Below are positions 1-25,424 of a stretch of DNA of 64,000 nucleotides, piece after piece (the stretch's first letter is position 1; each line of letters starts with the position of its first letter). Source of the DNA: a virus (taxonomy: Duplodnaviria > Caudoviricetes); IMG/VR virus record IMGVR_UViG_3300043252_000011, positions 34,429 through 98,428 of that record; one strand, given 5' to 3'. The notes below the pieces were generated by a model, which saw nothing but the letters and a program-made list of their open reading frames with translations, was not told the DNA's origin and did not search any database. The position numbers and the translations under genes were made by a program.

Positions 1-1
1 A

Positions 2-3107: not shown

Positions 3108-3179
3108 CGCACCCGTGGGAAAAGCCACCAGAGCCGGACTACAACGAAATACCAGAATTCCTAAAACGCGAATTGCCGC

Positions 3180-3488: not shown

Positions 3489-3496
3489 TATTTTGC

Positions 3497-6800: not shown

Positions 6801-7830
6801 TCCAGCCGCCGTCTTTCGGGGCGAGGCCATATTTTTCAACCTGTACGGAACCGTTAGGGCCGACATTGCCAGTCTGCCCGTCAATGGACCGCGTACGGAC
6901 AGGAAAACCAGCAGGCTCGTTTGAGCTACCAACGCGAATATCGCCTTGCAACGCGACTTCCACATCTTTTGGAGCCGTGCCATCGAAATTCGTGATGTTG
7001 TTAAGTTTCTGCGTAACCTGAGAATGCAGTTGCTGCGCTTGCGTAAACGCCGCGCCGTGTTGTTGCACTCCAGCCTGCCAGTCCGACACTTTTTCCGGTA
7101 TCGTTTGGAATCCAAGCGAAGTGATGGATTGCTTTTCTTCCGGCGTTAGGCTGCGGAGTACGGATGCGTACGCGGGTTGATTGTCGCCGGCAGCATTTAG
7201 TTTTGTGATGGCCGTGCTGGCTGCGGCGAGCCGCGCCCCGGCACCGTCAACAGCGGTCCCGGCAAAATCCTGCACCCAATCGCCCTTGCCGCGCGCCTGG
7301 AGATATTTGGCTTTACTGAAATCGCCGGACTTATACTGGTCGAGCAACCAATTATCCACCGTGTCATTCGTCATGAACGGGTTTTGAGCGGACGCCGGCA
7401 TTCCAAAATTGGTCGCACTTTTCTGGATGTCGGTTTGCTGTTGCTTTTGCGTTTTGATATTCTGCAGTTGTTCGGTCAGTTTTGGCAACGCATCACGCGC
7501 TGCCTGTACGGATTCGGGTGCAAATATCTGCATAAGAAAACCGCCGAAGCCGCTGGCCGTCGCGATCTTGCTGGTGCGATCGACGCGCTGTTCAAGCAGG
7601 TTCGCCGACTGGTCAAGCGCAGTTGCTTTCGGATCCTCTAGCGGTTTGTAGTTCGGAAACGGCGAGACGAACGAGTTACCGAATGTTGGCCCGCTGTCTT
7701 GCGGTGCAAGCGCTGTCGGCGCTGCCGTGGGCATATCCAAACCGCCGGCCGGCAACACGCCGCTGCCATCGCCGCTATATGCTGGCGAGCCCGATTGAGT
7801 ATCTAGGCCACCGCCGAAAACGTCTGACAT
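3889..7830 (-). CDS. Large internal virion/ejection protein with lysozyme-like domain
   Basis: 1313 aa, Ala/Gly/Gln-rich; SASGAYGFTDQTW...LYIAHNLG lysozyme-like motifs. Confidence 0.75.
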   Translation of the reverse strand: MSDVFGGGLDTQSGSPAYSGDGSGVLPAGGLDMPTAAPTALAPQDSGPTFGNSFVSPFPNYKPLEDPKATALDQSANLLEQRVDRTSKIATASGFGGFLMQIFAPESVQAARDALPKLTEQLQNIKTQKQQQTDIQKSATNFGMPASAQNPFMTNDTVDNWLLDQYKSGDFSKAKYLQARGKGDWVQDFAGTAVDGAGARLAAASTAITKLNAAGDNQPAYASVLRSLTPEEKQSITSLGFQTIPEKVSDWQAGVQQHGAAFTQAQQLHSQVTQKLNNITNFDGTAPKDVEVALQGDIRVGSSNEPAGFPVRTRSIDGQTGNVGPNGSVQVEKYGLAPKDGGWNATTAERLEKSDKMFAGDDVKGALNQYNIANKFRNEALNDQMYNSSAGLALLKDTLGAVGRDVAEKSAAAGTTGLSQMFGKQQGGFEGFLNRATSELGAYKNWVDGGRKGDAPRISDETKRGMQFIANENYKFAQEQAAGRVSGAMRYAGQIGRPLEDIPLDASLKDSVAQYHEEGRVDAINGWRSYPSVVRGNQRIFFPQGSNVNGAQPPRPPLTPVQQPDQNAGAVTPAQPVPPSNLPAPQSPGGGTGQPSMPPGASPTYAQTTQGIEAPGKANPWTATTASTSASGAYGFTDQTWKDNRPPGAPDRAKDATPAQQTAALATFTQKNATALQTAGLPVNDTSLYIAHNLGTAGGPKLLQADPNADARTVVGEEAARNNPRFFRGRPTVATVLQRYADATEGTVPQSSAAPGRQPAAGNPMDDPAATAWNQLTPEQQEQGRQGGTQMLEGALPAAGSTVGSLIGSRAGLPGQVIGGAIGGGGGQVLKDYLQGNPQSKTKIAEQAALGGLLSVVPAGKLLTKTGLAVLGGQTAGSAAIEAGATAVEGGTPADIVDAGLRGGAEGLGGRLFGHALGMGLNKVYSLFTTDAQKTVQAAAKDLHEANQTLATTEPKLPGDGAGDNPKYLAAQAAKEKAEATIKDMLPNAKPDEVAYAHKVTSEGDVPRGEAVVMGRARSAANETSQGYNQLRQDVQNTGVGVPKANQPTPDGPLAQIRTSENPTGTVEAKFVPDAEHAEMLVKAPADNWSQKWQQLQNAGSELIQKRMAFLQNADKPSADAMDNIFQGVRNQQVAAAKYVFGPARAPQVIDRLEQLDKSWATIMTGSGGMNYARMQQLLEGGNSPARRAMETAFKSFAGDDPGAMRAFNAMKVGAPADWKLMLPVIAGELSANAAGVPTLGALSATAAAGIGGQRIYRVMRQYMNAKVLGQPVQFKDFFMKDLQDDGTLKAITGNVAQRGAVQGDVLRSGAVQ

Positions 7831-7893
7831 TTTGACCGCTCCGCATGCGAATTGCGGGACGGTAGCATGATTAGAGCTGGTTTGTCACTTAGG

Positions 7894-8157
7894 CTACCTA
7901 ATGAATATCTGTGCACGAAAAAACCTACCAATTCTGAATCCAAACTCTCGTCTTACGCTGCGTTTCTCAGCTTCGTTTGCCGCAGCAACAATAAATTCAG
8001 CATCCGCACGGGTCAAACCGTAGCCAGGAGACCCGCTGTCAGTGGACCACCCCGGCGCCTCAGGATCGGCGCTCACAGTCCATATTTCAGCTTCGTCCCG
8101 CTCGGACCCTTTGCTGTAAGAGCAACCTTCATCGCAGACTGCGTACCACTTTCGCAT
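7894..8157 (-). CDS. Small hypothetical phage protein
   Basis: ATG at 8157 (MRKWYAVC...), DAEFIVAAAN motif common in phage accessory proteins. Confidence 0.6.
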   Translation of the reverse strand: MRKWYAVCDEGCSYSKGSERDEAEIWTVSADPEAPGWSTDSGSPGYGLTRADAEFIVAAANEAEKRSVRREFGFRIGRFFRAQIFIR

Positions 8158-8359
8158 CTTTAACCCCGTTAATTGTACGGTTAGTGTGCATCCTTTTCCG
8201 TACACTGTCAACTGCGCCGCTTTCCATAAAGCAAACATACGTACAACCGATATGCTTTCACAGCCAAATGCCTGCCGCCGCTAGGATACGCAATGTACAC
8301 ATACGTTGGCCACTGAGGCCAAGTATGCCACAACACACTCAATTCGCGACCAAATATTC

Positions 8360-8836
8360 TCATGCTGTACTCCGATAAGCCACACTGCAATGTTCCGCAC
8401 AGTACGGCTTGCCTTCGACGGCGCTGCCACCACAGAAAAAGAAATCAGGCGACAATGGGTCGCCGAACGGCCATTTGCAAACGCCACTGTTGAGTTGCAA
8501 TAGTGTACAGCGCTGCGCGGCTGGAATATTGGAACCGTCAGGTAGGACTGGCAATAGAGCCGGCGCGTTTATTTCGACATAGTCGAAGCGGTCGCCGTGA
8601 TTAGTGAGGCGCTTAACTTTTGGCCGTGTCTTCGATCTGTCTTTGGTGCTCTGCGGACGCTCCCCTAAACCAAGACGGTGTGCTTTCCCGATGCACGCAT
8701 TACGCTCCCCCGGAAAACCTAACTGAGCAGCAATATCGCTAAATGAATATCCTTGGGCGTGCAGCTTACGAAATTTTGCTTCGCGCTCGATCGTCCATTT
8801 AATTACCTGCGGGGCGCCCATCACACTTTGCTCCAC
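8360..8836 (-). CDS. gcrA: GcrA-family cell-cycle regulator homolog
   Basis: WT..R...RKLHAQGYSFSDIAAQLG..RNACIGKAHRLGL and CKWPFGDP..FFFCG..PYCAEH. Confidence 0.9.
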   Translation of the reverse strand: MEQSVMGAPQVIKWTIEREAKFRKLHAQGYSFSDIAAQLGFPGERNACIGKAHRLGLGERPQSTKDRSKTRPKVKRLTNHGDRFDYVEINAPALLPVLPDGSNIPAAQRCTLLQLNSGVCKWPFGDPLSPDFFFCGGSAVEGKPYCAEHCSVAYRSTA

Positions 8837-9030
8837 GGCATCCAGGCCGTGCCGACGACGCTGTAAAAGAATTTCGTCTCCCGATCATGGCGCGGTCCCC
8901 ACACAACACGTACGCCGCTGGGTGTACATTCGACAACTTCGCCATGACCGCGGACGTAAATGCCGCCGCCGATGGCGTGATTTACGATCTTGTCGCCTTC
9001 TTTGAGCGCGGAGAATTCTTGCAAGTTCAT
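8821..9030 (-). CDS. Hypothetical protein
   Basis: 69-aa ORF in overlapping minus-strand operon. Confidence 0.5.
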   Translation of the reverse strand: MNLQEFSALKEGDKIVNHAIGGGIYVRGHGEVVECTPSGVRVVWGPRHDRETKFFYSVVGTAWMPWSKV

Positions 9031-9263
9031 GACGCAGCCCCGACGTAGACGATACGAAAACCGATCTTGTGAAGCGCGATGATTATTGCGGACGCGTCAT
9101 TCGGGTCGAAATCGTGAAACCCGTTATGCATGAGTGCTTGCTGTGCAGCAACTAATTCCGCCGGTTTGTACAGCTTGTTTACGTGCTCAGCCATCCTGGC
9201 CCATTCCTCGTTGCTGGCGTGACTTGTGAGTACCGTCAGGATAATGGTCGCGCATATCCCCAA
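9027..9263 (-). CDS. Hypothetical protein
   Basis: 78-aa ORF, ATGA overlap with neighbour. Confidence 0.4.
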   Translation of the reverse strand: MGICATIILTVLTSHASNEEWARMAEHVNKLYKPAELVAAQQALMHNGFHDFDPNDASAIIIALHKIGFRIVYVGAAS

Positions 9264-9878
9264 CGACGTGCGTAACCCGGCCTGAATACTTTGGCATGTC
9301 CTTAATTGACAGCTTCATGCGCGGATCGGGTTGCGATGGCGTAAAGCACGCTATTAGCTTTGCCAGCATTTTCTTCATCTTACCACCCCGAACGCGTGCA
9401 TAAACACCGCACCGAACGAACAACCAAGCATCAAGCCGAGCCCGATGCAAACAAATAAAGTCAGCTTTTCGGTGCGCGTCATAGCTCGTCATCCAGTAAA
9501 TCGAGGATGCCCAATAGCACGTCGACGATGAACTTGTCACGGCCCGGTTCGTCAGCATGGCGTTTTATGCGTTCACGGAGTCGTGCGATTTTGGCGTCGA
9601 TAGATCGCTTACGTTCAACCACGGCTCAACTCCCTCTTAATCCTGGCAACCATCGAACGGCTGCACGTGTACAGCCGCTCCGCTTCCGGACTGCGTGGCC
9701 TATCGGCTTCACGTACCGATGCATCGCTGGCGATAATCACACTCGCCAGCAACCTTTGTACGGCGTTGAGCAGCCTGCCGCGCCGGTCCCGTTTGCGGTG
9801 GTAGCGTGTCATGGCACGTCACCTAACAACAGCCGAAGATTATGTGCCATGAGCGTCTTTTTTATTTTTACGTGGCAT

Positions 9879-10289
9879 TTAATACACCACTCGCTTGCCA
9901 GCTTCCGGCTTGAACGAAGCCACGGCAACGAACGACTTGCCTTCGTCACCCAGCTTTTCCATTTGTGCCGGCGACAGCAGCTCGCGTTTGAACGCCTTGT
10001 CGCCAAGCGTCTCTTGCGCAAGCACGGCGGTAGTCTCGGGGTCGCTCCAGCGGCGATGCACAACAGCGTCTTTGACGACAACGCCGGGAATCAGCTCGCC
10101 GTTGCCGATCGCACGCGCTTGAATTTGTGCATCGATGGCAGCTTGGAATGCACCGATTGCCTGTACGGCTTTCACCATCGGGACAAGGTTGGCGCTTTCG
10201 ATGGCGTCGGCATTGATAGCTTGCAATTTGGCAAGTACCGATTCGAGATCGGCGTAGACGGTGGCTAAGGCGGGGATGTTCGTATTCAT
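9879..10289 (-). CDS. Protein resembling the C-terminal part of DUF2800-type phage proteins
   Basis: GELIPGVVV..RRWSD..LLSPAQMEKLG motif; RBS ggag; upstream TTGACA promoter. Confidence 0.55.
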   Translation of the reverse strand: MNTNIPALATVYADLESVLAKLQAINADAIESANLVPMVKAVQAIGAFQAAIDAQIQARAIGNGELIPGVVVKDAVVHRRWSDPETTAVLAQETLGDKAFKRELLSPAQMEKLGDEGKSFVAVASFKPEAGKRVVY

Positions 10290-10339
10290 AGTCGCTCTCC
10301 AGCGGTTTGTCGATGTACGTACAATAACACCTTAAAAAC

Positions 10340-10798
10340 CTATGTCAAGCGATTATTTCGCTTTTCCAACCGCCGACCGTAACCCCAGCTCGTTTCGGTG
10401 TCCATGCCCAAAAGCCACGCCAGCTTGCCGAGTTCGTAACCCTCACAGATGGCGTCCCAATGGGCCACAGCCGCTCGCCCATTGACCGGCGAGGCAACGA
10501 TGGCAATCCGCAAGGCTGACGCTGCAGGCTCGTCGGCAGCCGCCAGAACGCGTTGCTTGCGTTTTGTACGTTCAAAATCCGTACGTCGCAAGTTACTGAT
10601 CGCCACAAGATCCTCAACCACGCTCGCAAGCAAGCCGCCGCAAAGTTCCGCCAGTTCGATCGGTAACCCGGCTTGCCTGCAGGCTATCGTCAAAGTCGGG
10701 CTTTTCATCCGTACAAGCGCGTTGATAGCCGGTTGATGCCGCGCAACTGTCTGTACGGCCAGTTCGGGCAGCCGTGTGTGCGTAATAAGTGCGTTCAC
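10340..10798 (-). CDS. Hypothetical protein
   Basis: 152-aa ORF with RBS aaagg. Confidence 0.5.
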   Translation of the reverse strand: MNALITHTRLPELAVQTVARHQPAINALVRMKSPTLTIACRQAGLPIELAELCGGLLASVVEDLVAISNLRRTDFERTKRKQRVLAAADEPAASALRIAIVASPVNGRAAVAHWDAICEGYELGKLAWLLGMDTETSWGYGRRLEKRNNRLT

Positions 10799-10874
10799 GT
10801 TTCGTACCTTTCACGATTGGATGATACTCTCCCTTCGTCCCCCTCGTCTAGTGGGTGTTGATGCCTATGCTTAC

Positions 10875-11040
10875 TAACACCCTCCCACTTCAAGGGGGTG
10901 ATTGAATATGCAGGCTGTAAATTTACGGCTTTTCACCATATATTTACAGCTAAGACTGTGGTAAATTTACAACAAATTTATGGTGTAAAATAAAATTCAC
11001 AAAAATTCATGAGACCCCTTTACAACTCTTTTTGAGGGGC
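10875..11040. promoter_or_regulatory. AT-rich divergent intergenic region with repeated AAATTTAC-like motifs (possible origin/operators)
   Basis: gtaaatttac twice, aaatttat, aaattcac, aaattcat, plus short hairpins between divergent operons. Confidence 0.4.
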
Positions 11041-11048
11041 GTAGAAGG

Positions 11049-11357
11049 GTGTCATACAAACCGCTGGAGAGTGACATGCAGACCGAGGATTATAAAGGCG
11101 CCCGGATACTGGCAACAGTCGAGCACCTGGGCGAAACGTTTCAAATTGTACGGTGGCGCGTCAACGGCAAGCCATGGCGCAAGTACATGGCACTGTTGTA
11201 CGGCGGCATAGTTATGTCGTATGGCAAAGGCGAAACCAACCCAACCAGAGCAGCTACTGAGTTCAAACATCTTTTTGAAAAAACCTTTACCGACCGCACT
11301 GAAATGCTCACCCGAATCCAGACTCTGAAACACCAGGCAGCCGGCCATTGCGACTGA
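11049..11357 (+). CDS. Hypothetical protein
   Basis: First gene of rightward operon; likely start MQTEDY after ggag. Confidence 0.55.
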   Translation: MSYKPLESDMQTEDYKGARILATVEHLGETFQIVRWRVNGKPWRKYMALLYGGIVMSYGKGETNPTRAATEFKHLFEKTFTDRTEMLTRIQTLKHQAAGHCD

Positions 11358-11369
11358 AAAGGAAACATC

Positions 11370-11849
11370 ATGCACGCGAAATACGAAGGCCAACTACCGG
11401 ACGGCTGGCAACGTGGCGAGCCGGTTACGAAATACTGGAACGGCGACTACATCCACCTTTACCGGGTTGTACGGCCTTGTGCAACGTGCGGCGCTGAAAT
11501 TAGTCTGGACGTAACCAGAAAGGCGCTCGAAGGCACCAAAAAGAACGCCGGGCTGCTGCTGCGCAACTGTCCAAAATGCCGAGCGGAACGCAAGGCCGGC
11601 GGTCCCGGCTCGCGTGGCGGTAAGTCCAGGCCGGTTGCCGGTGATGCACCCGTGGTTGTGCAGACTGCGATTCCGGCCGAAATAACGGAGGAACTTGAAC
11701 GGCTCCGTATGGCAAATGCAACCATGAAAGAGGAACTTGACGGGTTGTACACACAATTAAAGGAGTTGCGCGAACGCCCTGGCGAACCTGAACTGTTGCA
11801 AAAAAGTCACTCAGAAAATAATGTGAAAATGCCTTGGGAAAAGAGTTGA
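11370..11849 (+). CDS. Zn-ribbon/coiled-coil hypothetical protein
   Basis: CATC and CPKC pairs, coiled-coil C-terminus. Confidence 0.6.
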   Translation: MHAKYEGQLPDGWQRGEPVTKYWNGDYIHLYRVVRPCATCGAEISLDVTRKALEGTKKNAGLLLRNCPKCRAERKAGGPGSRGGKSRPVAGDAPVVVQTAIPAEITEELERLRMANATMKEELDGLYTQLKELRERPGEPELLQKSHSENNVKMPWEKS

Positions 11850-12081
11850 CAGAGCGCGGGAATGCGTGTACTTGTACGTACATCGAAAACGCAAACCGCT
11901 GGAGAGCGAAAATGATTACCCGAATCAAAACCGACGAAGAACTGGTACAGGAAGCCGCCCGCAAGTTGGCCATCGCTTGCAGCGGTGCCGAGTTTGATGC
12001 GGCGTGTGCTGACATGGTCGAAGCACTGCGTTATGCTCGTTCCGTGCAATGGTGGTCGCAGTTCGAGCGGGAGGTTGTGTG

Positions 12082-12300
12082 ATGACCGACATGAAAAACG
12101 TAAAATTTTTGCGCGACTTGCCGGGCGGCTCCACCTATCATTTAGGAACCGCCGTTTATTATCCGAACGGCCCCGGCTGGCGCTTTATTTCTAACGTTAG
12201 TTCGCACAAGGGCAGTCGTAAGTTCCACGCGACAATGGAAGCATGCGTACCCCGTTGGGTCGGCTACCCTGGCAAATGCCGCAGTGAGGTCAAGCAATGA
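12082..12300 (+). CDS. Hypothetical protein
   Basis: MTDMKNVKF..., overlaps the upstream stop. Confidence 0.5.
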   Translation: MTDMKNVKFLRDLPGGSTYHLGTAVYYPNGPGWRFISNVSSHKGSRKFHATMEACVPRWVGYPGKCRSEVKQ

Positions 12301-12338
12301 GCTACGGCCGCCACAGCATTATCGCGGGAACTTAAGTC

Positions 12339-12515
12339 ATGACGTTAAAAATCCACACAGAATTTGTCTACCCACCGATTCCAATTCGTCAGTTTGATTG
12401 GTCGGCAGTGACTGACAACTACGAACCGGGATGTCCGATTGGTTACGGCCCTACGGAACGAGAAGCGATTGACGATTTGCTTTCTCAAATTGAGCCAGAG
12501 GAATGGAGTGAATGA
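12339..12515 (+). CDS. Small hypothetical protein between 19-bp direct repeats
   Basis: Hand-translated 58 aa: MTLKIHTEFVYPPIPIRQFDWSAV...GYGPTEREAIDDL. Confidence 0.6.
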   Translation: MTLKIHTEFVYPPIPIRQFDWSAVTDNYEPGCPIGYGPTEREAIDDLLSQIEPEEWSE

Positions 12516-12685
12516 GCTACGGCCGCCACCACAGCCACGGCGGCCTTGGCCTCTTTGCCATCGTCGCCGCCATCGCATTTGCCTTCGGCGTACGTACAGC
12601 GCGCATTATCGTCGGCGGTACGTTGCTGATCGGCGCCGCGTTCTTCGGCTACGTCATGTTTCGCGTGATTATGGGGACGATATGA
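12512..12685 (+). CDS. Small membrane protein
   Basis: Hand-translated 57 aa: MSYGRHHSHGGLGLFAIVAAIAFAFG..., two hydrophobic helices. Confidence 0.55.
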   Translation: MSYGRHHSHGGLGLFAIVAAIAFAFGVRTARIIVGGTLLIGAAFFGYVMFRVIMGTI

Positions 12686-13032
12686 GCAAGCTAATCAAAT
12701 TTCAGCTAAAATTAAAAGACGGCGTTTCGATTGATTGCGTAGGTTACGTTCCGTACGAAGGATCACCTCTTGCGTTGACGCGCCCCCTGTTTCAAGGTAG
12801 GGCAGGTATTGAATTTGATGAATCGCAATGGTGCGTGAGGCACATCCGTACAAGCATGAGCTTAGGCTTTACGCGTTTTGAATCGCGTAAAGCAGGCATG
12901 GCGTTTATCGATCTCTTGAAACCGCGCGAGTGGTGCTGGGTTGTTTGCGATGAATCAAAGGGCAAAGAATGCCCCGAAATAGTGCGCTGTTTTGAGTTGT
13001 ACCAGAACGCTGTGAAGGTGAGCGTATCGTGA
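12682..13032 (+). CDS. Hypothetical protein
   Basis: MSKLIKFQ..., ATGA overlap. Confidence 0.5.
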   Translation: MSKLIKFQLKLKDGVSIDCVGYVPYEGSPLALTRPLFQGRAGIEFDESQWCVRHIRTSMSLGFTRFESRKAGMAFIDLLKPREWCWVVCDESKGKECPEIVRCFELYQNAVKVSVS

Positions 13033-13130
13033 CCAGCAACGAACAAGCCAGCGAACTCCTAACGCTCATTGCGCTGTCGCTATTCCTGGCCATGGTGTTG
13101 TCGTGGTCGGCTATCATTGGAGGCTAGAAT

Positions 13131-13343
13131 ATGCCACGGCGGTCTGGAATAAATTGGAATTTACCTGATGGAAATCTGTCAACGGGTGACGCGCAACTCG
13201 CGGTACTGATGGACATTCGGGACGAACTGAAAGAGTTAAACAACAAACTCGCTTGCTTTCGCGTCCGCAGGATGCTCAACACGGTGCAGCGCATTGACAA
13301 GCGTTTGGCCAAAAGGTTGCCGCTCAAACAGCGGGGCGTTTGA
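13131..13343 (+). CDS. Hypothetical protein
   Basis: 70 aa, RBS ggagg, LAVLMDIRDELK motif. Confidence 0.55.
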   Translation: MPRRSGINWNLPDGNLSTGDAQLAVLMDIRDELKELNNKLACFRVRRMLNTVQRIDKRLAKRLPLKQRGV

Positions 13344-13433
13344 CAATTCCATAGCGCGAGCATAAAAAGAAAAACCCCGATACGGGCTCGACTCCGTACC
13401 GGGGCTAGAAGCGCACCACAGCTAGGGCCTGCG

Positions 13434-15500
13434 ATGCTCGCTCCCACTAGCACAACCGCGTACGACATACAATCTTTTTGGGACGCCGCGATTGCACGCG
13501 GTCTTTTCCCCCTCGCCATAGCCCGGAACAGCAAAGCGCCGATCGGCGCGGGTTGGAATCTGTGGACGCACCCGATCGTGCACCCCGGCGCCGGCAGTGT
13601 CGGGCTCCGCTGCGGCGATAACGGCCTGACCGCATTCGATTGCGACCACGCGGACCCGCAAATATCGCAACGTCTGCTGGCGGCTTTTCGTTCCGTACTC
13701 GGCCCGAACATCCCCGTACGCTGGGGCCGTGAACCAAAATTCCTAATTCCGTTTTATCTCGTTGATGCGCCCGTACAAGGCCGCACATTTACATTTCCAG
13801 ATGGCAACAAATTACAATTAATGGGCGGTCAGTTCGTCGCGTTCGGTCCGCATAAAGATACCGGCCAAGACTATCGCTGGGAAAACTGGAATGTTGAATG
13901 GCCTCGACTGACAACGGAGCAACTGCAAACAGTCCTGTCCGAAGTCCCGCTACGAGCTGGTACGTCATTGCGCTTCGCTGCCGATCATGAAACCGCCAGC
14001 GCCGATGAGCTGAAATACGCGACGCCGCAGACGTACGATGAATGGGGAGCCGGCCGCGAAGCTGCCGCACGTTATCTCGGCATGCTGAAGCACGAATTAC
14101 TAGGCAAAACCGAAGGACGCGGATCTACAATCTTTGCCATCGTTGGCGTGCTGAAATTTGCCGAGCAACACGGCATGTGCACGCGGCGTGAAATCGAAGA
14201 TGCCATCACCGAGGCCGGGCATAGTTTGGACGAAGGCATCGGCGGCCGTACGCTTGGCGAAGAAATAACGCGGCAGGACCAATTGCCGGTACTGCGCGGC
14301 AACCTGATTATGCAAGCAGTCATGTCGCGCCGTACGATGCTGCAAGGTTTGCACGACGCACAGACAGCGCCGACGCTGGCGTTACGCAGTGGCTTTGAAA
14401 TATCCTTGGAGGACGACAATGCCGAGCTGCCATGGCTATTATATCAGAGGATACTTTGCGGCGAGGTTCACTTTTTCACCGGGCACAGCGGCGCCGGCAA
14501 GTCCGCGCTTGTTACTGATTTGGCCTTCCAATTTCTTCGGGGCCAAGCGTGGTTGGATGCTGACAACGAACGTACAAACGGTCATGTATTGTGGGTTGCC
14601 GCTGAAGACGACTACGGCACAGAACGACGCGTGAGGCACTTATTACGCCAAGAGCCAAACGCAACCGAGCTGGCATCGCGCTTCCACATGATACGCAGCA
14701 TCAACGAGCCGCTGGCATTCGAGCAACAATGCGTAGCGCAGGTTCAAGCTATGGCCGCAATGAACAAGCGCGTCGATATAATTACGCTGGATACTTGGGG
14801 CGCGAGCGGTCTTTGCTTCGCCGACAATGATACCGAAGCCGTGCTGAAAGCCATGTTTATTCTGAAAAGCGTAGCGCGGCGTACGGGTGCGGCTGTACTT
14901 GTCACCGATCATTTACCGCTCGGCAACGAAGACGCTTGGCAAAAAGGCAACGGCGCCAAGTCTGGCAACGCTGGTTTTGTTTATCGCGTCACTGGCGGTC
15001 GCAACGATTACGTGTCAGTTGATTGCGGCAAGGCGCGCGGTGCTCCGAAGGCCAAAAGTTATACGGGTAAAATCGTTTCGGAAAACTACGGCAAAGACGT
15101 AAAAGGCCGTACAACCACCGTGAATATATTCAAGCGCATTTCCGAAGTCATCAAAGAGAACAAAGAACAGTCCGCCGTGCTCAGGCTTGCCGCAATACTG
15201 CCCGGAGTAACTGCCGCTGGTATGGACGCCTTGCGCGCCGGCAGTATCGTCCGATTCGATAGTGTGGCTGCCGAGATAGGCCATGCCGTTAAAGGCGAAG
15301 TGCCCGGCTATGTCGTCAGTAAGGATGCCGCTAAAAAGATGTTCGAGGATGGTATAAAGGGCTTGCTAGAGAGTGGACATTTTAGGGCCTTGTACGGTTA
15401 TCCGTTTCTTGCTATTTTCCCGCCGAGTGGTAGTGTACGGCAAGAACTGACGATACCGTTTGTAATAGACATCCCGAAGGAGAGTTTTCCATGGCAGTGA
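13434..15500 (+). CDS. Bifunctional primase-polymerase / AAA (RepA-like) helicase
   Basis: N-terminal FDCD Prim-Pol motif; Walker A GHSGAGKS; Walker B ITLDT. Confidence 0.85.
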   Translation: MLAPTSTTAYDIQSFWDAAIARGLFPLAIARNSKAPIGAGWNLWTHPIVHPGAGSVGLRCGDNGLTAFDCDHADPQISQRLLAAFRSVLGPNIPVRWGREPKFLIPFYLVDAPVQGRTFTFPDGNKLQLMGGQFVAFGPHKDTGQDYRWENWNVEWPRLTTEQLQTVLSEVPLRAGTSLRFAADHETASADELKYATPQTYDEWGAGREAAARYLGMLKHELLGKTEGRGSTIFAIVGVLKFAEQHGMCTRREIEDAITEAGHSLDEGIGGRTLGEEITRQDQLPVLRGNLIMQAVMSRRTMLQGLHDAQTAPTLALRSGFEISLEDDNAELPWLLYQRILCGEVHFFTGHSGAGKSALVTDLAFQFLRGQAWLDADNERTNGHVLWVAAEDDYGTERRVRHLLRQEPNATELASRFHMIRSINEPLAFEQQCVAQVQAMAAMNKRVDIITLDTWGASGLCFADNDTEAVLKAMFILKSVARRTGAAVLVTDHLPLGNEDAWQKGNGAKSGNAGFVYRVTGGRNDYVSVDCGKARGAPKAKSYTGKIVSENYGKDVKGRTTTVNIFKRISEVIKENKEQSAVLRLAAILPGVTAAGMDALRAGSIVRFDSVAAEIGHAVKGEVPGYVVSKDAAKKMFEDGIKGLLESGHFRALYGYPFLAIFPPSGSVRQELTIPFVIDIPKESFPWQ

Positions 15501-15910
15501 AAGACGATCCGAAAGCCATTGCCAAATTACTCCGAGCCATGGCTAAAAGTGAACACGGTCAATGTTATGGGTGGCACGTAATTTTAAACGCTGCAGCAAA
15601 TTTGCTGGACGCAACGGCAAAATAATGGGCATAGACGCAAACGGCGAATTTGATGGCATTTGTGCCTGTGGAAAAGCCGCTATGGATGGAATCAGATGTA
15701 TCCTTGGTGCTACCCACATGCCTCTGAATCGTCAACCACACAAGCCGCGCTCTATGCCGTGGGAGACATCGTCTATTCCGGCCGCGAGCGCGGAACCGTC
15801 GTTACCGTGGACGCAGACAAGGCTACCATGGGAGTAGTTTGGGAAGACAGTGATGACGGCAAGCCGATTACATATCCGATGGACGCAGACTACTTGAGTA
15901 AGGAATTTCC

Positions 15911-16861
15911 ATGGTAGCGTACTACAACGAAAAAGACCCGTTCGCAGCGGAATGGCTACGCAAATTAATTGCTGCGAACATCATCGCACCCGGCGACGTT
16001 GACGAAAGAAGCATTGAAGATGTTATTCCCATGGAACTCGCCAAGTACACACAATGCCATTTCTTCGCCGGCATCGGTGTCTGGTCTTACGCCATGCGCC
16101 GCGCCGGCTGGCCCGATGACCGCCACGGCTGGAGCGGTTCGTGCCCATGCCAGCCTTTCAGCCAGGCAGGCCAAGGCGCGGGGTTTGCTGACGAGCGGCA
16201 CCTATGGCCTGCGTTTTTCCATCTTATCGAGCAGTGCCGCCCTGACATCGTTTTTGGTGAGCAGGTTGCGAGCCCGGACGGATTTGCTTGGTTCGACCTT
16301 GTACAGTCTGACATGGAAGGTACGGACTACGCCTTCGGGGCGCTCGATCAATGCGCTGCGGGCTTCGGCGCGCCGCATATCAGACAGCGGCTATACTGGA
16401 TGGCCTACGACAACAGCGCGGGACTGGCCCAGCAACAGCGCAACGGAAGAATACCATTCGGAACGCTGGTCGCACTCCCGCGGGAAGGCGCTGAACGAAT
16501 TAACGGAGCAACTAGCGGGATGGAACAGCACGTCGGCGTCGGACGGGAATGGCGGCAAACGTCCGCACCCGGATACGACAATGACGGGGCGGCACCCGAA
16601 CGGCAACAAAATCAATATGGGGGTGTCATCGCAAGCACACCTAGCATTCTTGAACGTGCAGCCGGCCCGACTAACGGTTACTGGCGAGCTGCTGATTGGC
16701 TCCGATGCAAAGATGACAAGTGGCGGCCAGTTGAACCCAGCGCATTCCCGTTGGCTCATGGGGTTGCCAATTGAGTGGGACTTCTGCGGGGTTACGGTAA
16801 CGCTATCGTCGCGCCGCAAGCGCAAGAATTTGTGAAGGCAGCCATGCAGTACATGCCATGA
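15911..16861 (+). pseudogene. C5 cytosine methyltransferase (alpha frame) with in-frame TGA at 16772-16774
   Basis: FFAGIG, GSCPCQPFS, EQV and PHIRQR motifs; motif X RGYGNAIV lies in frame after the TGA. Confidence 0.75.
15969..16835 (+). CDS. Overlapping alternative-frame MTase beta subunit (M.EcoHK31I-like)
   Basis: LNPAHSRWLMGLP motif IX-like; same frame is conserved at 53986-54810. Confidence 0.55.
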   Translation: MLRTSSHPATLTKEALKMLFPWNSPSTHNAISSPASVSGLTPCAAPAGPMTATAGAVRAHASLSARQAKARGLLTSGTYGLRFSILSSSAALTSFLVSRLRARTDLLGSTLYSLTWKVRTTPSGRSINALRASARRISDSGYTGWPTTTARDWPSNSATEEYHSERWSHSRGKALNELTEQLAGWNSTSASDGNGGKRPHPDTTMTGRHPNGNKINMGVSSQAHLAFLNVQPARLTVTGELLIGSDAKMTSGGQLNPAHSRWLMGLPIEWDFCGVTVTLSSRRKRKNL

Positions 16862-17181
16862 GTGATATAGAGGTTTTTCCCTGGGACCCGCCACAACGAT
16901 CGGTGGAAGACACCATCGAATTGATACGAAACGACTTTGCGTACGCTGTTGCAAACACCGCGATTGTAGTACATTCCAACAATCCGGCGTTCGCCTTCAT
17001 CGCCAACACGCAGCGGGGCCAGCTCGTACCGCGCGGGGAGGTTAAACTGTCGGACGGAACGACGGTTGAATTGCAGGATATCGGGATGTGCCAGCCCAAC
17101 GTGCCTCACATGACCGTACAGCAGATCATGACGCGTATCTGGAAACTGGCGAGTGATTTGGGGTTGGAGATTGTGAAATGA
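16858..17181 (+). CDS. Hypothetical protein
   Basis: 107 aa, ATGA overlap. Confidence 0.5.
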   Translation: MSDIEVFPWDPPQRSVEDTIELIRNDFAYAVANTAIVVHSNNPAFAFIANTQRGQLVPRGEVKLSDGTTVELQDIGMCQPNVPHMTVQQIMTRIWKLASDLGLEIVK

Positions 17182-17648
17182 CAAAAGACGAAGTTATTAA
17201 TAAAATTGTCACTGATCTAGCGTGGCGCGGGCCGAGCGGACGACCGATGAATTTTGTTTGTCTAACACGTGAACAAGCGATAGTCCTAATAAAGCCAGAG
17301 CCAGAAAAAGAGACTTCTAAATGACCGCATACTGGCCAACGGCTGCCGTAATGCAGCATCTGGACGGCTACCAGCGAGTCGGACTGGTAAACGCTTCGCT
17401 CGGCACGTCGCAACTAATGATGGTTGCCTGCCATATAACGCGACCAGCAAGATATCCGCCTGCACGTCATTGGCAGTCATTCAATCGAAAGGCGCCGGAA
17501 TGCGTTGCGTTTACCTGAGCTACCCCGACTACGGCCAATGGACCGCCCTGGAGCGCGGCGGCTTTGTGGAAATGTGGGACGATTTCGGCTTTGTGATGGA
17601 CGCGCTGCATTGACAGCGTACGGTAGCAGGTGTACAGAATAACAACAA

Positions 17649-17775
17649 GAATGTCGCCAACTTAGAGGTATTCCGATGCACCGACCGAGCGAATTTTTAG
17701 CCTGGGCCGTCGAGACATTCGGTCCGGTTGCCCTCAAGCGCAAAGAACGCCTTATGCGCTTTACTGAGGAAGCAA
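17649..17775 (+). repeat. 127-bp direct repeat, copy 1
   Basis: Identical to 63874-64000. Confidence 0.95.
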
Positions 17776-18029
17776 TCGAACTCGCGCACGCGGACGGCCT
17801 TAAGCGGGCTGATTTGGATAGGCTTTTGGACCGCGTTTATTCGCGTCCTGCTGGCCATGTGTGGCGCGAAATCGGCCAAGCGCAGGCGTGCCTAGAAACC
17901 TACGCCCAAAGCATCGGCGTGTCTGCGGACGAACAGGCGCAGAAGGAATTTGATCGGGTGCGCAAAATCCCGAAAGAGGAATGGACGAAACGCCACGCGG
18001 CCAAGGTCGGCCTTGGTATCGCCGGCTGA
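17676..18029 (+). CDS. MazG-like NTP pyrophosphohydrolase-fold protein
   Basis: ERLMRFTEEAIEL...EIGQ pattern. Confidence 0.55.
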   Translation: MHRPSEFLAWAVETFGPVALKRKERLMRFTEEAIELAHADGLKRADLDRLLDRVYSRPAGHVWREIGQAQACLETYAQSIGVSADEQAQKEFDRVRKIPKEEWTKRHAAKVGLGIAG

Positions 18030-18053
18030 TACGGAATTAACACGGAGATTGAT

Positions 18054-18284
18054 GTGAAAAAGACGATCACGCCCGACGAGCGCCTCCAAGCCTTCGCACT
18101 CTTTGTAATGGCTTGCCAGCACGCTCAGGAATGCCGCCGATACGAGCGGGCCATCGCCAAGATTTTCGGCGACACCGACGAGTTCAATTCGCGGGTTAGC
18201 GATTCCATCTACGGGAGTGAGCCCAATGGGGCCTCTGTCGAGTTCGATGAAATCTTGGAAGGCAACGAGATCAAGGTGAAGTGA
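18054..18284 (+). CDS. Hypothetical protein
   Basis: 76 aa, RBS ggag. Confidence 0.55.
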   Translation: MKKTITPDERLQAFALFVMACQHAQECRRYERAIAKIFGDTDEFNSRVSDSIYGSEPNGASVEFDEILEGNEIKVK

Positions 18285-18700
18285 TGGCGCGCTTTGCTGC
18301 CCAAACTCGAGTTGGCGTCGATCAAACCCGTGTTGAGATCGAGCGCACGCTGGCGCGCTATGGTGCCACCGCGTTCGGCTACATCAGCAAGCAGGGCGTG
18401 GCCATCATTGGCTTTGAGGCGGCTAAGAGGCACATCAAAATTACTGTGCCGCTTCCAGTCGGCGAAGATGAAAAGACGAAGCAGCAAGCCCGGCAGCGCT
18501 GGCGCGCCCTACTCCTGGTCATCAAGGCCAAGCTCGAATCTGTCGAAAGCGGCATCGAGACTTTGGAGGAAGCATTCTACGCAAACATCGTCATGCCGGA
18601 CGGCCGCACGATCTATGAAAGCACGCGCGAGCATGTTGCGGTCGCTTACAAGACCGGCAAGGTGCAGGGACTTTTGCCGGATTACACGAAGTCCGGTTAA
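18281..18700 (+). CDS. Conserved hypothetical phage protein
   Basis: EIERTLARYGA...RWRALLLVIKAKLE...EEAF motif. Confidence 0.7.
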   Translation: MMARFAAQTRVGVDQTRVEIERTLARYGATAFGYISKQGVAIIGFEAAKRHIKITVPLPVGEDEKTKQQARQRWRALLLVIKAKLESVESGIETLEEAFYANIVMPDGRTIYESTREHVAVAYKTGKVQGLLPDYTKSG

Positions 18701-18722
18701 TGACAGAACACTCGCCAACTTC

Positions 18723-19625
18723 ATGACCCAGGCAGCGACCATAGAAGCTCCTACCCGCCCGGCACTCCGCTGGCACGGCGGTAAGTGGAAGCTCGCGCCG
18801 TGGATCATGTCGCATTTCCCGCCGCACCGGGTCTACGTTGAGCCGTTCGGTGGTGCTGCCTCCATCCTGCTCCGCAAGGAGCGCGTCTATGGGGAGGTTT
18901 ATAACGACCTGGACGACTGGGTTGTGAACCTATTCCGCGTCCTCCAAAACGAGGAACAGGCGGCACGCCTAGTCCGGCTGCTCGAGGTCACACCCTTCGC
19001 CCGGACTGAATTTGAAGTCGCGCGCAAGCTCGGCGAGGCGGAAGGCGACCCGGTTGAATTGGCCCGCCGGCTGATAATCCGATCCTACATGGGCTTTGGG
19101 TCCAATGCGCACGACGGCCGATCGACAGGCTTCCGGTCGAACAGCAACCGTAGCGGCACGTTGCCGGTGCAAGATTGGGCCAATTACCCCCAGGCGCTGC
19201 TTAAGATAGTCGAGCGGTTCCGAGGCGTGGTGATCGAACATCGTGACGCCACCGCCGTCATGGTGCAACACGATAGCCTCGAGACGCTGCATTACGTGGA
19301 TCCTCCATATCTCCCTGAGGTCCGATCGCCGGCAAATAAATACGGCCTGAAATACCGGATGTACCGGCACGAAATGGACGCTGCCGGCCACCTAACGCTG
19401 ATTGAGGCGCTGCACCAGCTCGAGGGAATGGTCATCCTATCCGGTTATCCCCCCCCTTTGTACGAATCCGCGCTGCCTGGCTGGCGACGATCAGAGACGG
19501 CCGCCCTAGCCGATGGCGCGCGGAAGCGCACGGAAGTTCTTTGGATCAATCCGGCCGCCGCCGAAGGCCTCGATCGCGTGCGGCGAGGTCATGAGTTTGG
19601 TTTGTTCGCAACAGTTGGCGGTTAA
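18723..19625 (+). CDS. dam: DNA adenine methyltransferase (D12 class)
   Basis: RWHGGKW, YVEPFGG, EVYND and DPPY motifs. Confidence 0.9.
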   Translation: MTQAATIEAPTRPALRWHGGKWKLAPWIMSHFPPHRVYVEPFGGAASILLRKERVYGEVYNDLDDWVVNLFRVLQNEEQAARLVRLLEVTPFARTEFEVARKLGEAEGDPVELARRLIIRSYMGFGSNAHDGRSTGFRSNSNRSGTLPVQDWANYPQALLKIVERFRGVVIEHRDATAVMVQHDSLETLHYVDPPYLPEVRSPANKYGLKYRMYRHEMDAAGHLTLIEALHQLEGMVILSGYPPPLYESALPGWRRSETAALADGARKRTEVLWINPAAAEGLDRVRRGHEFGLFATVGG

Positions 19626-19647
19626 CTTCTGCTTAACAGGGACACCG

Positions 19648-20732
19648 ATGGCTGAGCACTGGAAAGATAAGGACGGCGTGATCCACTGCGAAGGCGTCGA
19701 GTCCGGCGACTATCTGCTTTGTGGCCTAGCGCCGGAAGGCGAGAATGGCGACGATGAATTGCCGACAAAAACGCACGCTTCGATCAATTGTAGCAATTGC
19801 GTCGCCATCATTGCCTTTTGCCGCCGCATCCGACCGGGAGAATTTGTATCAACCGTGCGAGCACAGAGGTAACGGCAATGGCTATCGTCGAAGTTCACCT
19901 GGTCGAAGATCGCGCCAAAATCTATAGCAGCACGGGCGCTGTTTACGAGATTTGCGACGATCATTTTGACCAACCGACTGTCAAAGTCCTAGAAATGGGC
20001 GGCCGTGGTTATGAACGCTCGCAAACGCAAGTCGAGAGAGACGATCAGCTAAAACGCTATCGTCGGGCGCTTGAAAATATCATGTACTGTGAGGCGACCA
20101 TGTGCGCCGACTACGTTGAAGAAATGAAGGAACTTGCACGCAACGCCCTTATGAGGCCGCGATGACCCGCTCCCAACTCGAAATGGCCGCCCAGGCAATC
20201 GCCAAAGAACACGGCTGCGGCCTGGACGACAATGGCGGAATATGCCCGGCCGGCGACAAAGGCGAGCCATGTATGTGCGAGAGGTTCGCGCGGGTTGCGT
20301 TGCGAGCGGCAGAGGAATGCGCGCTTTGCGAAACACCGGAGACAACATGATCTTAAAAAACGGCTTCGATACAGGAAAGTCCTGTTGTTTTTGCGGTGCC
20401 GACATTACCAACTGTGAACGAGGCTATGCTGGAGAGCCGTGTTGTCGCGCTTGCGGCAAGGGCGGCAATGGCGAGCCTGACGAGGCTTACATGGCTTACA
20501 AGGGAAACCTACCAGCGCCGCTCTGGTTTTGGGGATGATAGCGATGGCACGAGACAAATTCGATATGGCGGCGAGTTTCATCGTCGAGGAACATATCCGT
20601 ATCTACGACAAGATGGTGCCGCATCCCGACGCGATTAAAGACGCCGTCGCGAAAGAATTGCGCCAAACATGGAACGAGGCCATTGACGCGGTGATCGCCA
20701 AGGCAAAGACAATCGCCGCCGTAATCGACTAA
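19648..20732 (+). CDS. Five small hypothetical genes (19648-19872, 19878-20165, 20162-20350, 20347-20538, 20544-20732)
   Basis: Tightly packed or overlapping ORFs with RBS, several Cys-rich. Confidence 0.5.
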
Positions 20733-22625: not shown

Positions 22626-23025
22626 CATGCTTATCCGGTTGCCACACACAAACGCTTGAGAGGTACTAGATGTTGATCGAACGCCGAGGCTTGTTGACCG
22701 GGATCGTCGCAACTCTTTGCGCGCCTTCAATTGTGCGCGCGGGATCATTGATGCGGATCGCTGGCGAGCGGTATCGAATTTGGGGGTTTTCGTGTCCTTT
22801 GCTGCCGCCAGCGGAGGCGGCCTACAACAATCCGGCTTTATGGGACAAATATCTCGGGCCAACTCGCCGCCTTCAATTCGGAACATGGACGTTTTTCGGC
22901 AAAACCGGGAACGTCTATACCGACGACGTGATTGACTTTGCGAAGCAGGAATATCCGGATGCGCTCCCGTGGCCTGCGCATCAGGCACAAGATGTAGGGC
23001 TGTGTGTCTAAACCGGATAAGCATG
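22626..23025 (+). mobile_element. Non-autonomous TIR cassette 1 (IS1595/ISSod11-like ends), 400 bp
   Basis: TIR catgcttatccggtt; 8-bp TSD tgctatat (22618-25 and 23026-33). Confidence 0.88.
22670..23011 (+). CDS. Cassette 1 cargo with twin-arginine-like N-terminus
   Basis: MLIERRGLLTGIVATLCAPSIVRA; start and stop lie in the element ends. Confidence 0.65.
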   Translation: MLIERRGLLTGIVATLCAPSIVRAGSLMRIAGERYRIWGFSCPLLPPAEAAYNNPALWDKYLGPTRRLQFGTWTFFGKTGNVYTDDVIDFAKQEYPDALPWPAHQAQDVGLCV

Positions 23026-23093: not shown

Positions 23094-23901
23094 ATGGGCG
23101 ATCATCGCTTTGAATTAAAGGCTGAATTTTCCATGCACGGGCATGAGAAGAAAATAAATTGGAATCTAAATTGGAGCGATAGTATCCCCGAGCGCTTGGC
23201 GGAATGGGTTGAACAACAGTATCAAGAAGCCATGAATTTCTGGTACGAAGCCGAATGGACCGCCGAAGATCATCGTAACGCCGAAATAGAGAGAACCGAA
23301 CGGGCAGAGTTGGATCGCCTTAAAGCCAAATACGAACCGCCACACTAAACAAGAGTTAGCATGGTCATGAGCCAATATCTTTCGCTTTACGATGCCCAGA
23401 CTGAAATCCTGCAGTGGCTTGAATCGAAAGGCCACGCGGTTGATTATGGTTCTGGCAAACCTCTCGATGATTGGCGGGTATGGCAGATGTGCAAAAGAAA
23501 GCGGCGGTTTCAGATGCGTCCAGAGGAAGATGAGCGTCGCCGCGTGTACGCCTGTCCGCATTGCGAGGGCTGGCATTTTACCCGGCGCCGATAGTAGACA
23601 AGTTAACACGCAGGAGCTTGGAATGAGCAATACTGACGGACAGCGCGATATCACCTTGGCGATGGAAGCAGAACTCGCGACAGTGTCTAAGACCACCGTG
23701 GCAGCAGCAGCCAAAGCGGCGGAAGATCAAGACATCGCCTATGTGATGACGCAGCAGATCAACTGCATCATCGATGCCAATGTGCGGCTTCGCGGCTCGC
23801 ACCGCCTCGTCGGCGCCGATGTCCAGGCGTGGGTCAACATGGTGGATTATCTGACGCGGGAAAAGGAAGGACTTACCGCAAAGCGCCAGCGGCAGAACTA
23901 A
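23094..23901 (+). CDS. Three small hypothetical genes (23094-23348, 23361-23594, 23623-23901)
   Basis: ORFs separated by palindromic sites; the middle one has YACPHCEGWH. Confidence 0.55.
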
Positions 23902-24502
23902 TCAGCTTTCTTATCAAGCCGCGCCTCGATCTCGCCAGTTGTCGGTCGGGTCTGTTCAAGCGTCTTAACCCGATCTTCGAGCCGGGTTGTCTCCCGCTGG
24001 TAATCACCTTTCAACTCATTCAATCGTTCTTTGGTGTTTTTGGCAAATTCCTCATGCTCGCGGATCGACAGACTCTTGCCGAGCATTTGGGAGGCAAGAG
24101 TGATTGCAGAGAGGATGACCGCGCCAAGTGCAATGTAGGTGGGGTCCATCAGCCATGCGGCAATTCAATCCGCCTCAACCGCTGCTCGTGGTCTTTCGTA
24201 ATGTCTTTCAGGTCGGAATCAATCTGTGTCTCGGTCTTGATATGATCGTCGAGCTTGGTCGTCAGCACATTCAAATTGGTTATGGCCTGTTGCTGGGCAT
24301 CGTTGATCTTGCTGATGGCGGTCCACTGCAATTGAATGCCGGTTTCGGATTTGGTTTTAACATCGACAAGCGTGCCCCAGGCCAAATAGATCGCGGCCGT
24401 GCCGGCGGCGCCGATGAGCGTGATGAGGATTCGGAATACCCAAGCGGTTGCCCGTTCCTTGGTCTCGACGAATTCCTGTAGCGTCATGCCGATCCTGCTC
24501 AT
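23898..24502 (-). CDS. Two TM/coiled-coil lysis-region proteins (23898-24149, 24149-24502)
   Basis: N-terminal TM plus coiled coil, downstream of endolysin. Confidence 0.55.
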
Positions 24503-24568
24503 TTCGCGCCCGCCAATACTAACGTCTTCGAAGTTTCGTGCTACTCATCCACAAGTCCCGGTACGAAA

Positions 24569-24599
24569 GTATGGGGCCGCATTGGCGCGCGCCCCATAC
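24569..24599 (-). terminator. Hairpin terminator after the porin-like gene
   Basis: gtatgggg...ccccatac stem followed by TTT on the minus strand. Confidence 0.45.
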
Positions 24600-24626
24600 C
24601 GACTGACTGACGCTACTCCCTCGACG

Positions 24627-25424
24627 TTACAGGCCGAATTCGTAACTCAACCGCGTCCAATACTGCGTGCCGAGGTTGGCGCCCGCACTGAGTGTGAGCG
24701 GAGCGCCGTTTGTCGCGAAGGCGTTACCCATGGTGAAACCCTTGACCGGGAATGCAACGCCGGCAGAAGCATCGATCGCGCCGCCGTTCGGCTTGCCATC
24801 GGTGCCGAGCGTAGGCCAAATGAAGCCGCCAGTAATCATCGGGTAAGCGCCAACGGTCGTGCCGTTCGCGTTACCGAAGCTGCCACTGATTCCGGCTTCT
24901 TTGAGGCCAACGCCGACGTATTGCCGTGGTGCTCCGACAGGAACGGTCGGGGGAATCGGCGTGAAGGTCGGAAAGTTCGTCACCGGCAACGTCGGGAGGG
25001 CCGCATAAATCTTTTGCAGCCATTCAAAGCCGATGTCGAATTCCTGCGTCGCGGCCCATCGACTTGCGATTGCTGCGCTGGCTGCGCTTGTCGTGGCAGT
25101 TGCCTGCACCGTATTGGTGCCAGTGATATTCGACCATTCGCCGGTCAATTTGCCTCTGCACCATCCGATAGCGCAGTGGCCGACATAACCGACTTCGCCG
25201 CCGACCGCGCCACCCGTCGCCGTGAGATTGCCGCTTGCGAGACTCGTGGCAAAGACATTGGTGCCGCTGACACTCGACTGCGCGACATCAGCCTCGGTGA
25301 GGATACCGACAAACCAGCTGGAACCGGCCGCGGTAGCTGCCGGTGCCTTCAATGGCAAGTCTGCCGCCAGAGCCGGTACTGCCAGCGCGGTAAGCGCCAT
25401 GGTAAGCAGTAGCAATTTGCGCAT
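24627..25424 (-). CDS. Outer-membrane porin-like (Omp25/RopB-type) moron
   Basis: Signal peptide, ADLPLKAP start, C-terminal TRLSYEFGL. Confidence 0.65.
   Translation of the reverse strand: MRKLLLLTMALTALAVPALAADLPLKAPAATAAGSSWFVGILTEADVAQSSVSGTNVFATSLASGNLTATGGAVGGEVGYVGHCAIGWCRGKLTGEWSNITGTNTVQATATTSAASAAIASRWAATQEFDIGFEWLQKIYAALPTLPVTNFPTFTPIPPTVPVGAPRQYVGVGLKEAGISGSFGNANGTTVGAYPMITGGFIWPTLGTDGKPNGGAIDASAGVAFPVKGFTMGNAFATNGAPLTLSAGANLGTQYWTRLSYEFGL

Follow-up and report, generated by a model that had tools for sequence, protein, structure and literature searches.

The 98,428-bp viral record examined here is probably an assembler's merge of two soil-phage genomes, made through a figure-eight graph at a 394-bp block (R) that both phages carry; R itself represents a real and recent single-gene transfer, best read as moron-type exchange at conserved leaders. 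The catalogue entry, a terminally repeated 'complete' virus of 98 kb, would really be two genomes, A and B, of 52 and 46 kb.

Two genomes and one shared block in a single record

The stretch of DNA analysed (the window) comprises the final 64,000 bases of the 98,428-bp IMG/VR contig (G000:C1:34429-98428); positions are those of the window unless given as contig positions. IMG/VR classes the record as 'DTR', with a completeness of 100%. In order, the record consists of R, the body of phage A, R again, the body of phage B and the first 127 nt of R. Contig positions 1-394 are 100% identical to contig positions 52077-52470 (window 17649-18042), with 0 mismatches, and the terminal 127 bases of the record repeat its initial 127 bases. 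The segments and genes needed first are listed here, R being counted once in the size of each phage:

1 to 17648, no strand: final 17.6 kb of phage A (total 52,076 bp, GC 55.6%), which naturally continues via R into contig position 395 and not into B
17649 to 18042, forward strand: R, the block identical in phages A and B (394 bp; its own 394-nt unitig in three runs; 100% in both contexts)
17676 to 18029, forward strand: ORF of 117 aa in R, a probable all-alpha NTP pyrophosphohydrolase (MazG-like), judged by fold matches and invariant acidic residues
18043 to 63873, no strand: body of phage B (46,225 bp including R, GC 59.2%), self-closing through R
59609 to 60478, forward strand: RecT-family single-strand annealing protein of phage B, a candidate catalyst of short-homology exchange
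63874 to 64000, forward strand: start of R repeated at the record end, a probable 127-nt k-mer overlap, read by IMG/VR as a direct terminal repeat

R contains this single ORF, a 27-nt leader and a 13-nt trailer. As a sequence-only reading of this DNA had stated, 17649-17775 equals 63874-64000 (127 bp) and the bases preceding the shared stretch differ (A at 17648, C at 63873). The true shared length is 394 bp; 127 is only the terminal overlap, because the record stops there, and the switch of the contig from A to B falls somewhere within R (17649-18042). We take 127 to be the largest k of the JGI metaSPAdes recipe and the record to be a path over four graph edges (R, A, R, B), which is what a terminal overlap equal to the largest k fits. 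The tail-plus-loop assembly path at k=127 that had been suggested from the letters is supported, in fact as a figure-eight.

A complete genome recognised by its terminal repeats has one packaging set between them. Here there are two terminases and two connectors, and the repeat also occurs internally. The large terminase of A lies at contig 23555-25129 and its connector/portal at contig 13011-14489; in B the large terminase lies at 48091-49593, the connector/portal at 45095-46708 and the major head protein at 43094-44053. Outside R, A and B have six patches in common, at 72-88% identity. The earlier claim that two compositionally unrelated phages carry the same cassette is correct as to the same single-gene block in different contexts, and the six patches qualify the word 'unrelated'.

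Contigs from public runs show the branches at R. Logan contigs (k=31) of four public soil runs, each with one depth figure per contig, were placed on window 15649-20042. In three of the four runs R stands apart as a k=31 unitig of 394 nt whose depth equals the summed depths of its flanks (239.6 vs 115.8 + 134.2; 343.1 vs 168.9 + 176); in the third run it stands at 5.1 vs about 5 and 4.8. All four branches are visible, the alternatives appearing as loose ends at 17649 and 18042 in three runs, and the ratio of B to A depth across these runs is 1.04-1.57. The sequence-only reading had called for doubled coverage over the shared gene and for a second exit near 18023: the former appears in these Logan contigs of public soil runs as the summed depth of the flanks, and the exit was confirmed at about 18042. 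In the fourth run (X4, 2016, from another study) B-end, R and B-start lie on a single contig of 7,129 nt, 100% identical to that arrangement, and A is uncovered.

An exact look-up of the R protein retrieved five contigs. A contig of 1,328 nt from another JGI metagenome joins A-end (468 nt), R and A-start (466 nt) at 100% identity, and the JGI source contig is the same 98-kb circle, rotated, with B-end, R and A-start internal. Among the five, the crossed arrangement is confined to the source contig, and A-end followed by R and B-start was found in no other. A truly runs from 17648 via R into contig position 395, because 11 relatives keep that gene order. A and B each form a closed circle of their own. 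The joint at 17648/17649 is genuine, being seen between A-end and R in independent assemblies, so that the artificial concatenation considered in the earlier reading does not apply to it; the continuation from R into B past 18042 is unsupported.

That each circle closes on itself in independent assemblies also bears on the possibility that the 98-kb circle is a real cointegrate (R-A-R-B), produced by homologous recombination at R in the source sample. The crossed path did come out of the assembler, in three runs the depths of A and B differ by a factor of about 1.0-1.6, and 394 bp of identity together with RecT would make recombination easy. Against this, A-end to B-start through R is seen in the source contig alone, B is found without A in X4, the depths of A and B are unequal, and the circle would hold two full packaging gene sets, when the relatives of A measure 45-58 kb and those of B 39-70 kb; a 98-kb molecule would presumably fit neither capsid. 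We consider a cointegrate very unlikely. On the preferred reading, a merge by the assembler, A (52,076 bp) and B (46,225 bp) would both have been present in the same soil samples as separate molecules; R, identical in the two, would have become one graph node with two entries and two exits; and the 127-nt 'terminal repeat' would be the k-mer overlap at that node.

R as an insertion in phage A

The history of R can be read from the A lineage. Eleven relatives of A were found via its helicase (76-97% identity, contigs of 45-58 kb). All eleven keep primase-(MTase)-A_107-gap-A_92-A_52-helicase on one stretch with a variable gap, and R and both flanking elements are absent from every one of them. 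Three offer empty sites, of 29 nt (L247 and L250) and 31 nt (L248), in which a stop codon is followed by a few bases, GTACAG, a GTACGYAC-like sequence and the ATG of A_92. L249 has a different 60-codon ORF at the site of R; in L251 and L252, A_107 and A_92 nearly abut. The features at the corresponding site in A are:

17632 to 17637, forward strand: native A-lineage GTACAG, the last match to L247, L248, L249 and L250 and the left joint of the insertion
17638 to 17675, forward strand: copy in A of the 5' leader, consisting of the canonical left part TAACAACAAG and a 20-nt core, and part of the DNA inserted in A
18027 to 18042, forward strand: 3' recurrent leader TGATACGGAATTAACA at the R end, its last base supplying, in A, the first letter of the ATG that opens the next native gene

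The order in A is GTACAG, AA, the canonical leader start TAACAACAAG, the core, R, TACGGAATTAAC and the ATG of A_92. An insert of about 404 nt (about 17638-18041, +/-4) replaced 8 nt of native spacer before the A_92 ATG, and at the right joint donor and recipient have a few bases in common around TTA-ACA-TG. R is thus an insertion in A relative to its relatives: as in a moron, an extra gene stands between genes that are adjacent in relatives (11 without R, three with empty sites). The interval between A_107 and A_92 (window 17181-18042) is itself a hot spot in the A lineage, measuring 5-1,129 nt in the 11 relatives and holding different small ORFs. The right joint of L249, AATTAACATG, is common with A.

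In composition R resembles B and is foreign to A. GTAC is absent from R (0 vs 2.55 expected at the density of A), as it is from 7% of A windows of 394 nt; under a third-order Markov model, 1.6% of A windows are as B-like as R, and R falls inside the distribution of B. Overall, A (window 1-17648 plus contig 395-52076) has 335 GTAC sites (6.48/kb) and B has 58 (1.27/kb), a five-fold difference, and for CGTACG the counts are 58 in A and 1 in B; the native A spacer is itself GTACAG-GTACGYAC-ATG.

R is 100% identical across both contexts and in independent samples, and so the transfer was recent or the copies are kept alike by ongoing exchange. The best explanation is that A acquired R recently, from a B-like gene pool. 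Vertical inheritance of R in both phages was rejected, R being 100% identical as against at most 88% for the rest, and missing in relatives. For B an empty site is undefined: relatives of its 306-aa gene (59-65%) and of its 139-aa gene (<=97%) carry neither R nor the elements. As an example of natural single-gene transfer between two co-occurring phages the case is unusually clean, with donor-like and recipient surroundings and empty sites all at hand and both joints mapped to within a few bases.

As to what R encodes, no Pfam or NCBIfam family matched the 117-aa protein at E<=0.01, and PDB profiles gave only YpjD (2gta, E=0.064). Its PHROG matches, phrog_8593 and phrog_14118, are of unknown function. 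Homologues number 185 (58-87% identity), one of them named NTP pyrophosphatase by JGI and one lying in a Bradyrhizobium genome, which hints weakly at a host; a pattern search of IMG/VR, which required near-identity, returned no relative. The AF2 model (pLDDT 93.6) has six helices, and its top VIA matches are 3nl9, a putative NTP pyrophosphohydrolase (Z 5.5), 5myd (5.0) and 1w2y (3.9), Z values that are low for a helical bundle; all three belong to the NTP pyrophosphohydrolase/dimeric dUTPase superfamily. Foldseek against PDB gave no match for the model. Residues E24, E31, E32, E35, E74 and E91 are invariant in 32 homologues, and the EExxE with a later E/D presumably corresponds to the MazG metal-binding motif. 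The label 'MazG-like' is reasonable but not proven. In L269 (1038-1854) a 68%-identical homologue lies directly behind a dUTPase/dCTP-deaminase gene, a neighbour that fits a role in nucleotide metabolism.

The conserved leader and the crossover question

The 5' edge of the insert lies in a sequence that recurs well beyond A and B. Its other copies in the window, the second copy of the 3' motif and the one site-specific recombinase are as follows:

51238 to 52011, forward strand: small serine recombinase of phage B, the sole site-specific recombinase found
61242 to 61292, forward strand: 5' leader, copy B1, occupying all of the space that separates the DUF5131 gene from a 140-aa ORF
61719 to 61731, forward strand: second copy of the 3' motif, GGCTGATACGGAA (13 nt), directly after the 140-aa ORF
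63858 to 63900, forward strand: 5' leader, copy B2, before R in phage B, with a divergent left part

The 20-nt core occurs exactly three times in the window, as against 0 in 100 shuffles; in the record it is found solely before R and at 61260. Five further IMG/VR contigs carry the exact core, as do additional contigs from JGI metagenomes. In all of these about 44 nt are near-invariant: the stretch opens with CAACAAG, continues with the core and GGAGGACACC and closes at a GTG or ATG start, and it extends from the stop codon of the preceding gene through the Shine-Dalgarno sequence to the start codon. The downstream ORFs, which come from diverse soil phage contigs, fall into at least eight families without mutual BLASTP similarity, and the preceding ORFs are, with the exception of one pair, mutually unrelated. 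Among homologues of R, those 84% and 87% identical have a variant of the same leader, and those 85% and 78% identical are without it.

Each of the five other element-bearing IMG/VR records has one leader copy. These five genomes have a handful of ORFs in common with each other, A or B (G001 and G002 being related), and an all-against-all ORF comparison of the five near-complete carriers and B found no protein common to all. The major capsid protein and RecT of B have no match in the five records, which hints that these phages differ from B; the ORF comparison is the better support. Among A, B and G001-G004, otherwise unrelated soil phages have single ORFs in common at 72-89% identity; in B, contig-relative positions 6250-6501 match G001 and 6979-7809 match G004. 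Such shared ORFs indicate a gene pool that these phages have in common, and probably a shared host range as well.

Neither the exact core nor a degenerate 27-nt form is present in 185,579 prokaryote species genomes, so that they point to no host or prophage. Scans of IMG/VR with 15-mers and 16-mers gave mostly chance matches, from which a check of the flanks leaves L013-L017 for the 5' element and L042, perhaps also L020, for the 3' element. Weaker relatives of the core (TCGCCAACTT...) lie before the Dam methylase gene of B (18694-18715) and before the gene that follows R homologues in L267 and L018, which suggests a wider family of related leaders.

The leader appears from its letters to be an unstructured, CAA-rich stretch with two Shine-Dalgarno-like runs. 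No hairpin is predicted (fold z-scores -0.14 to +1.49), a consensus scan found no sigma-70-like promoter at the three leader copies (the promoter type of the host may differ), consensus scans found no terminator for R, and Rfam at gathering thresholds gave no match in the window. A phage RNA-polymerase promoter was rejected on the grounds of one copy per genome, and a structured RNA on the fold z-scores. The near-invariance of 44 non-coding bases in unrelated phages exceeds the needs of a translation signal. Tentatively, and with more doubt than belief, we suggest that the leader of about 44 nt could be a new portable, promoter-less 'gene junction' (stop codon, double Shine-Dalgarno, start) which marks an accessory-gene slot and serves as a preferred joint for single-gene swaps, possibly via small circles formed between two copies, of which B has a pair, or through another factor.

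At their 3' ends, the 140-aa ORF and R close with the same 13-nt motif. The unit of the 140-aa ORF (61242-61731) is 90-97% identical to L013 and L017 over the leader and the first ~55 coding bases and ~80% at the 3' end, with an interior of ~40-67%; its ends are conserved and its middle has diverged. The motif at 61719-61731 is followed directly by one (61732-62175) of three units of 390-444 bp (the others at 22626-23025 and 57183-57572) that share inverted ends of ~30-60 nt and contain a different small ORF each.

The sequence-only reading had seen in this leader an integron-like site of the form arm-spacer-arm (7-7-7), with identity beginning at the last base of the spacer, and had held that the shared gene would be direct evidence of site-specific transfer. 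CAACAAG does recur at a second site, at 61252-61258, as it had stated. The symmetry did not hold up: for the sites at 17636, 63861, 61245 and 18023 the arms pair at 2, 3, 2 and 3 of 7 positions, against a window mean of 1.79. Nor did the layout, since an alignment of 13 leader instances places the conserved columns over the 'spacer' and on the R side, CAACAAG belongs to the conserved element (10/13 instances) and the 'left arm' is non-conserved. That the cassette starts precisely at the site is half right. The 5' edge does lie in a real recurrent element, but the insert in A starts at about 17638-17641 and not at 17649, that is, 8-11 nt further left (about -9 to -12 relative to the core). A therefore did not get R by a cut at 17649 from today's B copy. 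The A/B edge stands at 17649 because the B leader copy diverges in its left part; from the alignment, 17649 reads as the first base where two diverged leader copies agree, not as a cleavage point.

A dedicated site-specific cassette system, in which a recombinase would cut the element at a fixed point left of the core and move R as a cassette, is in our judgement highly improbable. The identity edges are instructive here. Relative to the core, they lie at -2 between A and B2 and at 0 between L166 and L167, both at the left border of the core, as a fixed crossover may also have given, in a small sample. Further edges are found at +20 (R-type leaders vs others), at +33 (L014 vs L167) and at about +90 (the 140-aa ORF vs L013 and L017, where the 3' end forms a second conserved island), positions that speak against a fixed cut. 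As the core is invariant, true crossover points are hidden within it, and -1/-3 are the nearest positions where any edge is detectable. The insert in A does begin at the canonical start of the element, a point in favour of a cassette, and yet this start is 8-11 nt left of the proposed crossover. One element before eight unrelated ORFs would suit a cassette system, as would the small serine recombinase of B; the latter shows weak invertase and IS607-type matches, all below cut-offs, and no element-like sequence occurs elsewhere in the contig, including near its gene. Tyrosine recombinases are absent from the 98-kb record (PF00589, 0 matches, as against matches in 14/14 control genomes), the inverted symmetry of 2-3 of 7 is at the level of chance with hairpin z-scores near 0, and the five other near-complete carriers and B have no protein in common. 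With varying edges, no tyrosine recombinase, no inverted-repeat site and no common protein, the evidence falls short of directly showing site-specific transfer, and an integron-like mechanism is not supported.

Exchange by homologous recombination is the reading that we prefer. R would be a single-gene, moron-type module that travels with its leader of about 44 nt; in element-bearing phages, genes would be swapped by homologous recombination within the short conserved leaders, possibly assisted by phage annealing proteins such as the RecT of B. Recombinases of the RecT/Rad52-like type can act on homologies that are short and diverged (De Paepe et al. 2014, PMC3945230), and T4-type phages shuffle genes at conserved intergenic cassettes (Arbiol et al. 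2010, PMC2839356; Comeau et al. 2014, PMC4122927). Entry into A, which had no element, would have relied on microhomology at the right joint, and selection may have preserved gene boundaries, which can explain joints at gene ends. The left joint in A counts against this explanation: it lies exactly at the canonical element start, and homologous recombination cannot account for it, because the A lineage is without the leader. Also against it stand the two pairs with edges at the left border of the core and the near-invariance of the leader.

The two leader copies of B (61242 and 63858) are direct repeats 2,616 bp apart, and recombination between them might release a 2.6-kb circle; this circle, or similar circles of leader plus gene, could then integrate at the leader of other phages, in a PeSL-type mini-circle transfer. 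Such circles have a precedent in T4-type phages (PMC2839356), and the 140-aa unit, conserved at each end and diverged in between, has the expected form. Set against this are the single leader copy of most element-bearing genomes and the lack of a resident copy in A at which a circle could integrate; no circle was observed. We regard mini-circles as improbable, and homologous exchange within the leaders remains the preferred account of the transfer.

Comparison with known systems

Repeat-induced figure-eight contigs lead to false 'DTR/complete' calls in viral metagenomics (de Bruijn assemblers, CheckV/IMG/VR). The present record resembles them in an overlap equal to the largest k (127), in an internal copy of the repeat and in two packaging gene sets, and differs in that its halves are different genomes rather than a concatemer of one genome, for which reason checks for duplicate k-mers would miss the merge. 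Through such merges, viral catalogues acquire inflated genome sizes and spurious gene linkages, which a check for duplicated content does not reveal.

Integron cassettes are likewise promoter-less single ORFs with a recurrent boundary sequence, and the same gene is found in different contexts. Unlike attC/attI systems, the case described here has no IntI-type tyrosine recombinase and no foldable imperfect inverted repeats; there is no cassette array, and the identity edges vary between pairs.

The morons of lambdoid phages, reportedly described by Juhala and colleagues (2000) and by Hendrix, offer a closer comparison for R. Like them, R is a single gene between genes adjacent in relatives, with a composition foreign to A. 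It differs in that consensus scans detected no promoter or terminator of its own; R brings a Shine-Dalgarno leader instead and is apparently read within the resident operon.

Relaxed recombination by Rad52-like/RecT proteins (PMC3945230), a class represented in B by its RecT, would account for mosaic joints where homology is short or diverged. The homologies involved here are only ~20-44 nt long, and the left joint in A has none.

The shuffling of genes at PeSLs in T4-type phages would, by analogy, be the closest described parallel, rather than integrons. In both, insertions or replacements of small accessory genes are bordered by a short intergenic sequence that is conserved, and exchange between otherwise unrelated sequences is ascribed to homologous recombination at the motif. 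The leader differs from PeSLs in having neither a sigma-70 promoter (by consensus scan; that of the host may differ) nor a stem-loop, and in its copy number, which is one in most carriers and two in B as against dozens for PeSLs; its carriers, moreover, are phages largely unrelated to each other. Should the leader prove to be a hotspot of recombination or a control site held in common, the PeSL idea would reach beyond T4-type phages, and the leader would provide a handle on the accessory-gene slots of uncultured soil phages.
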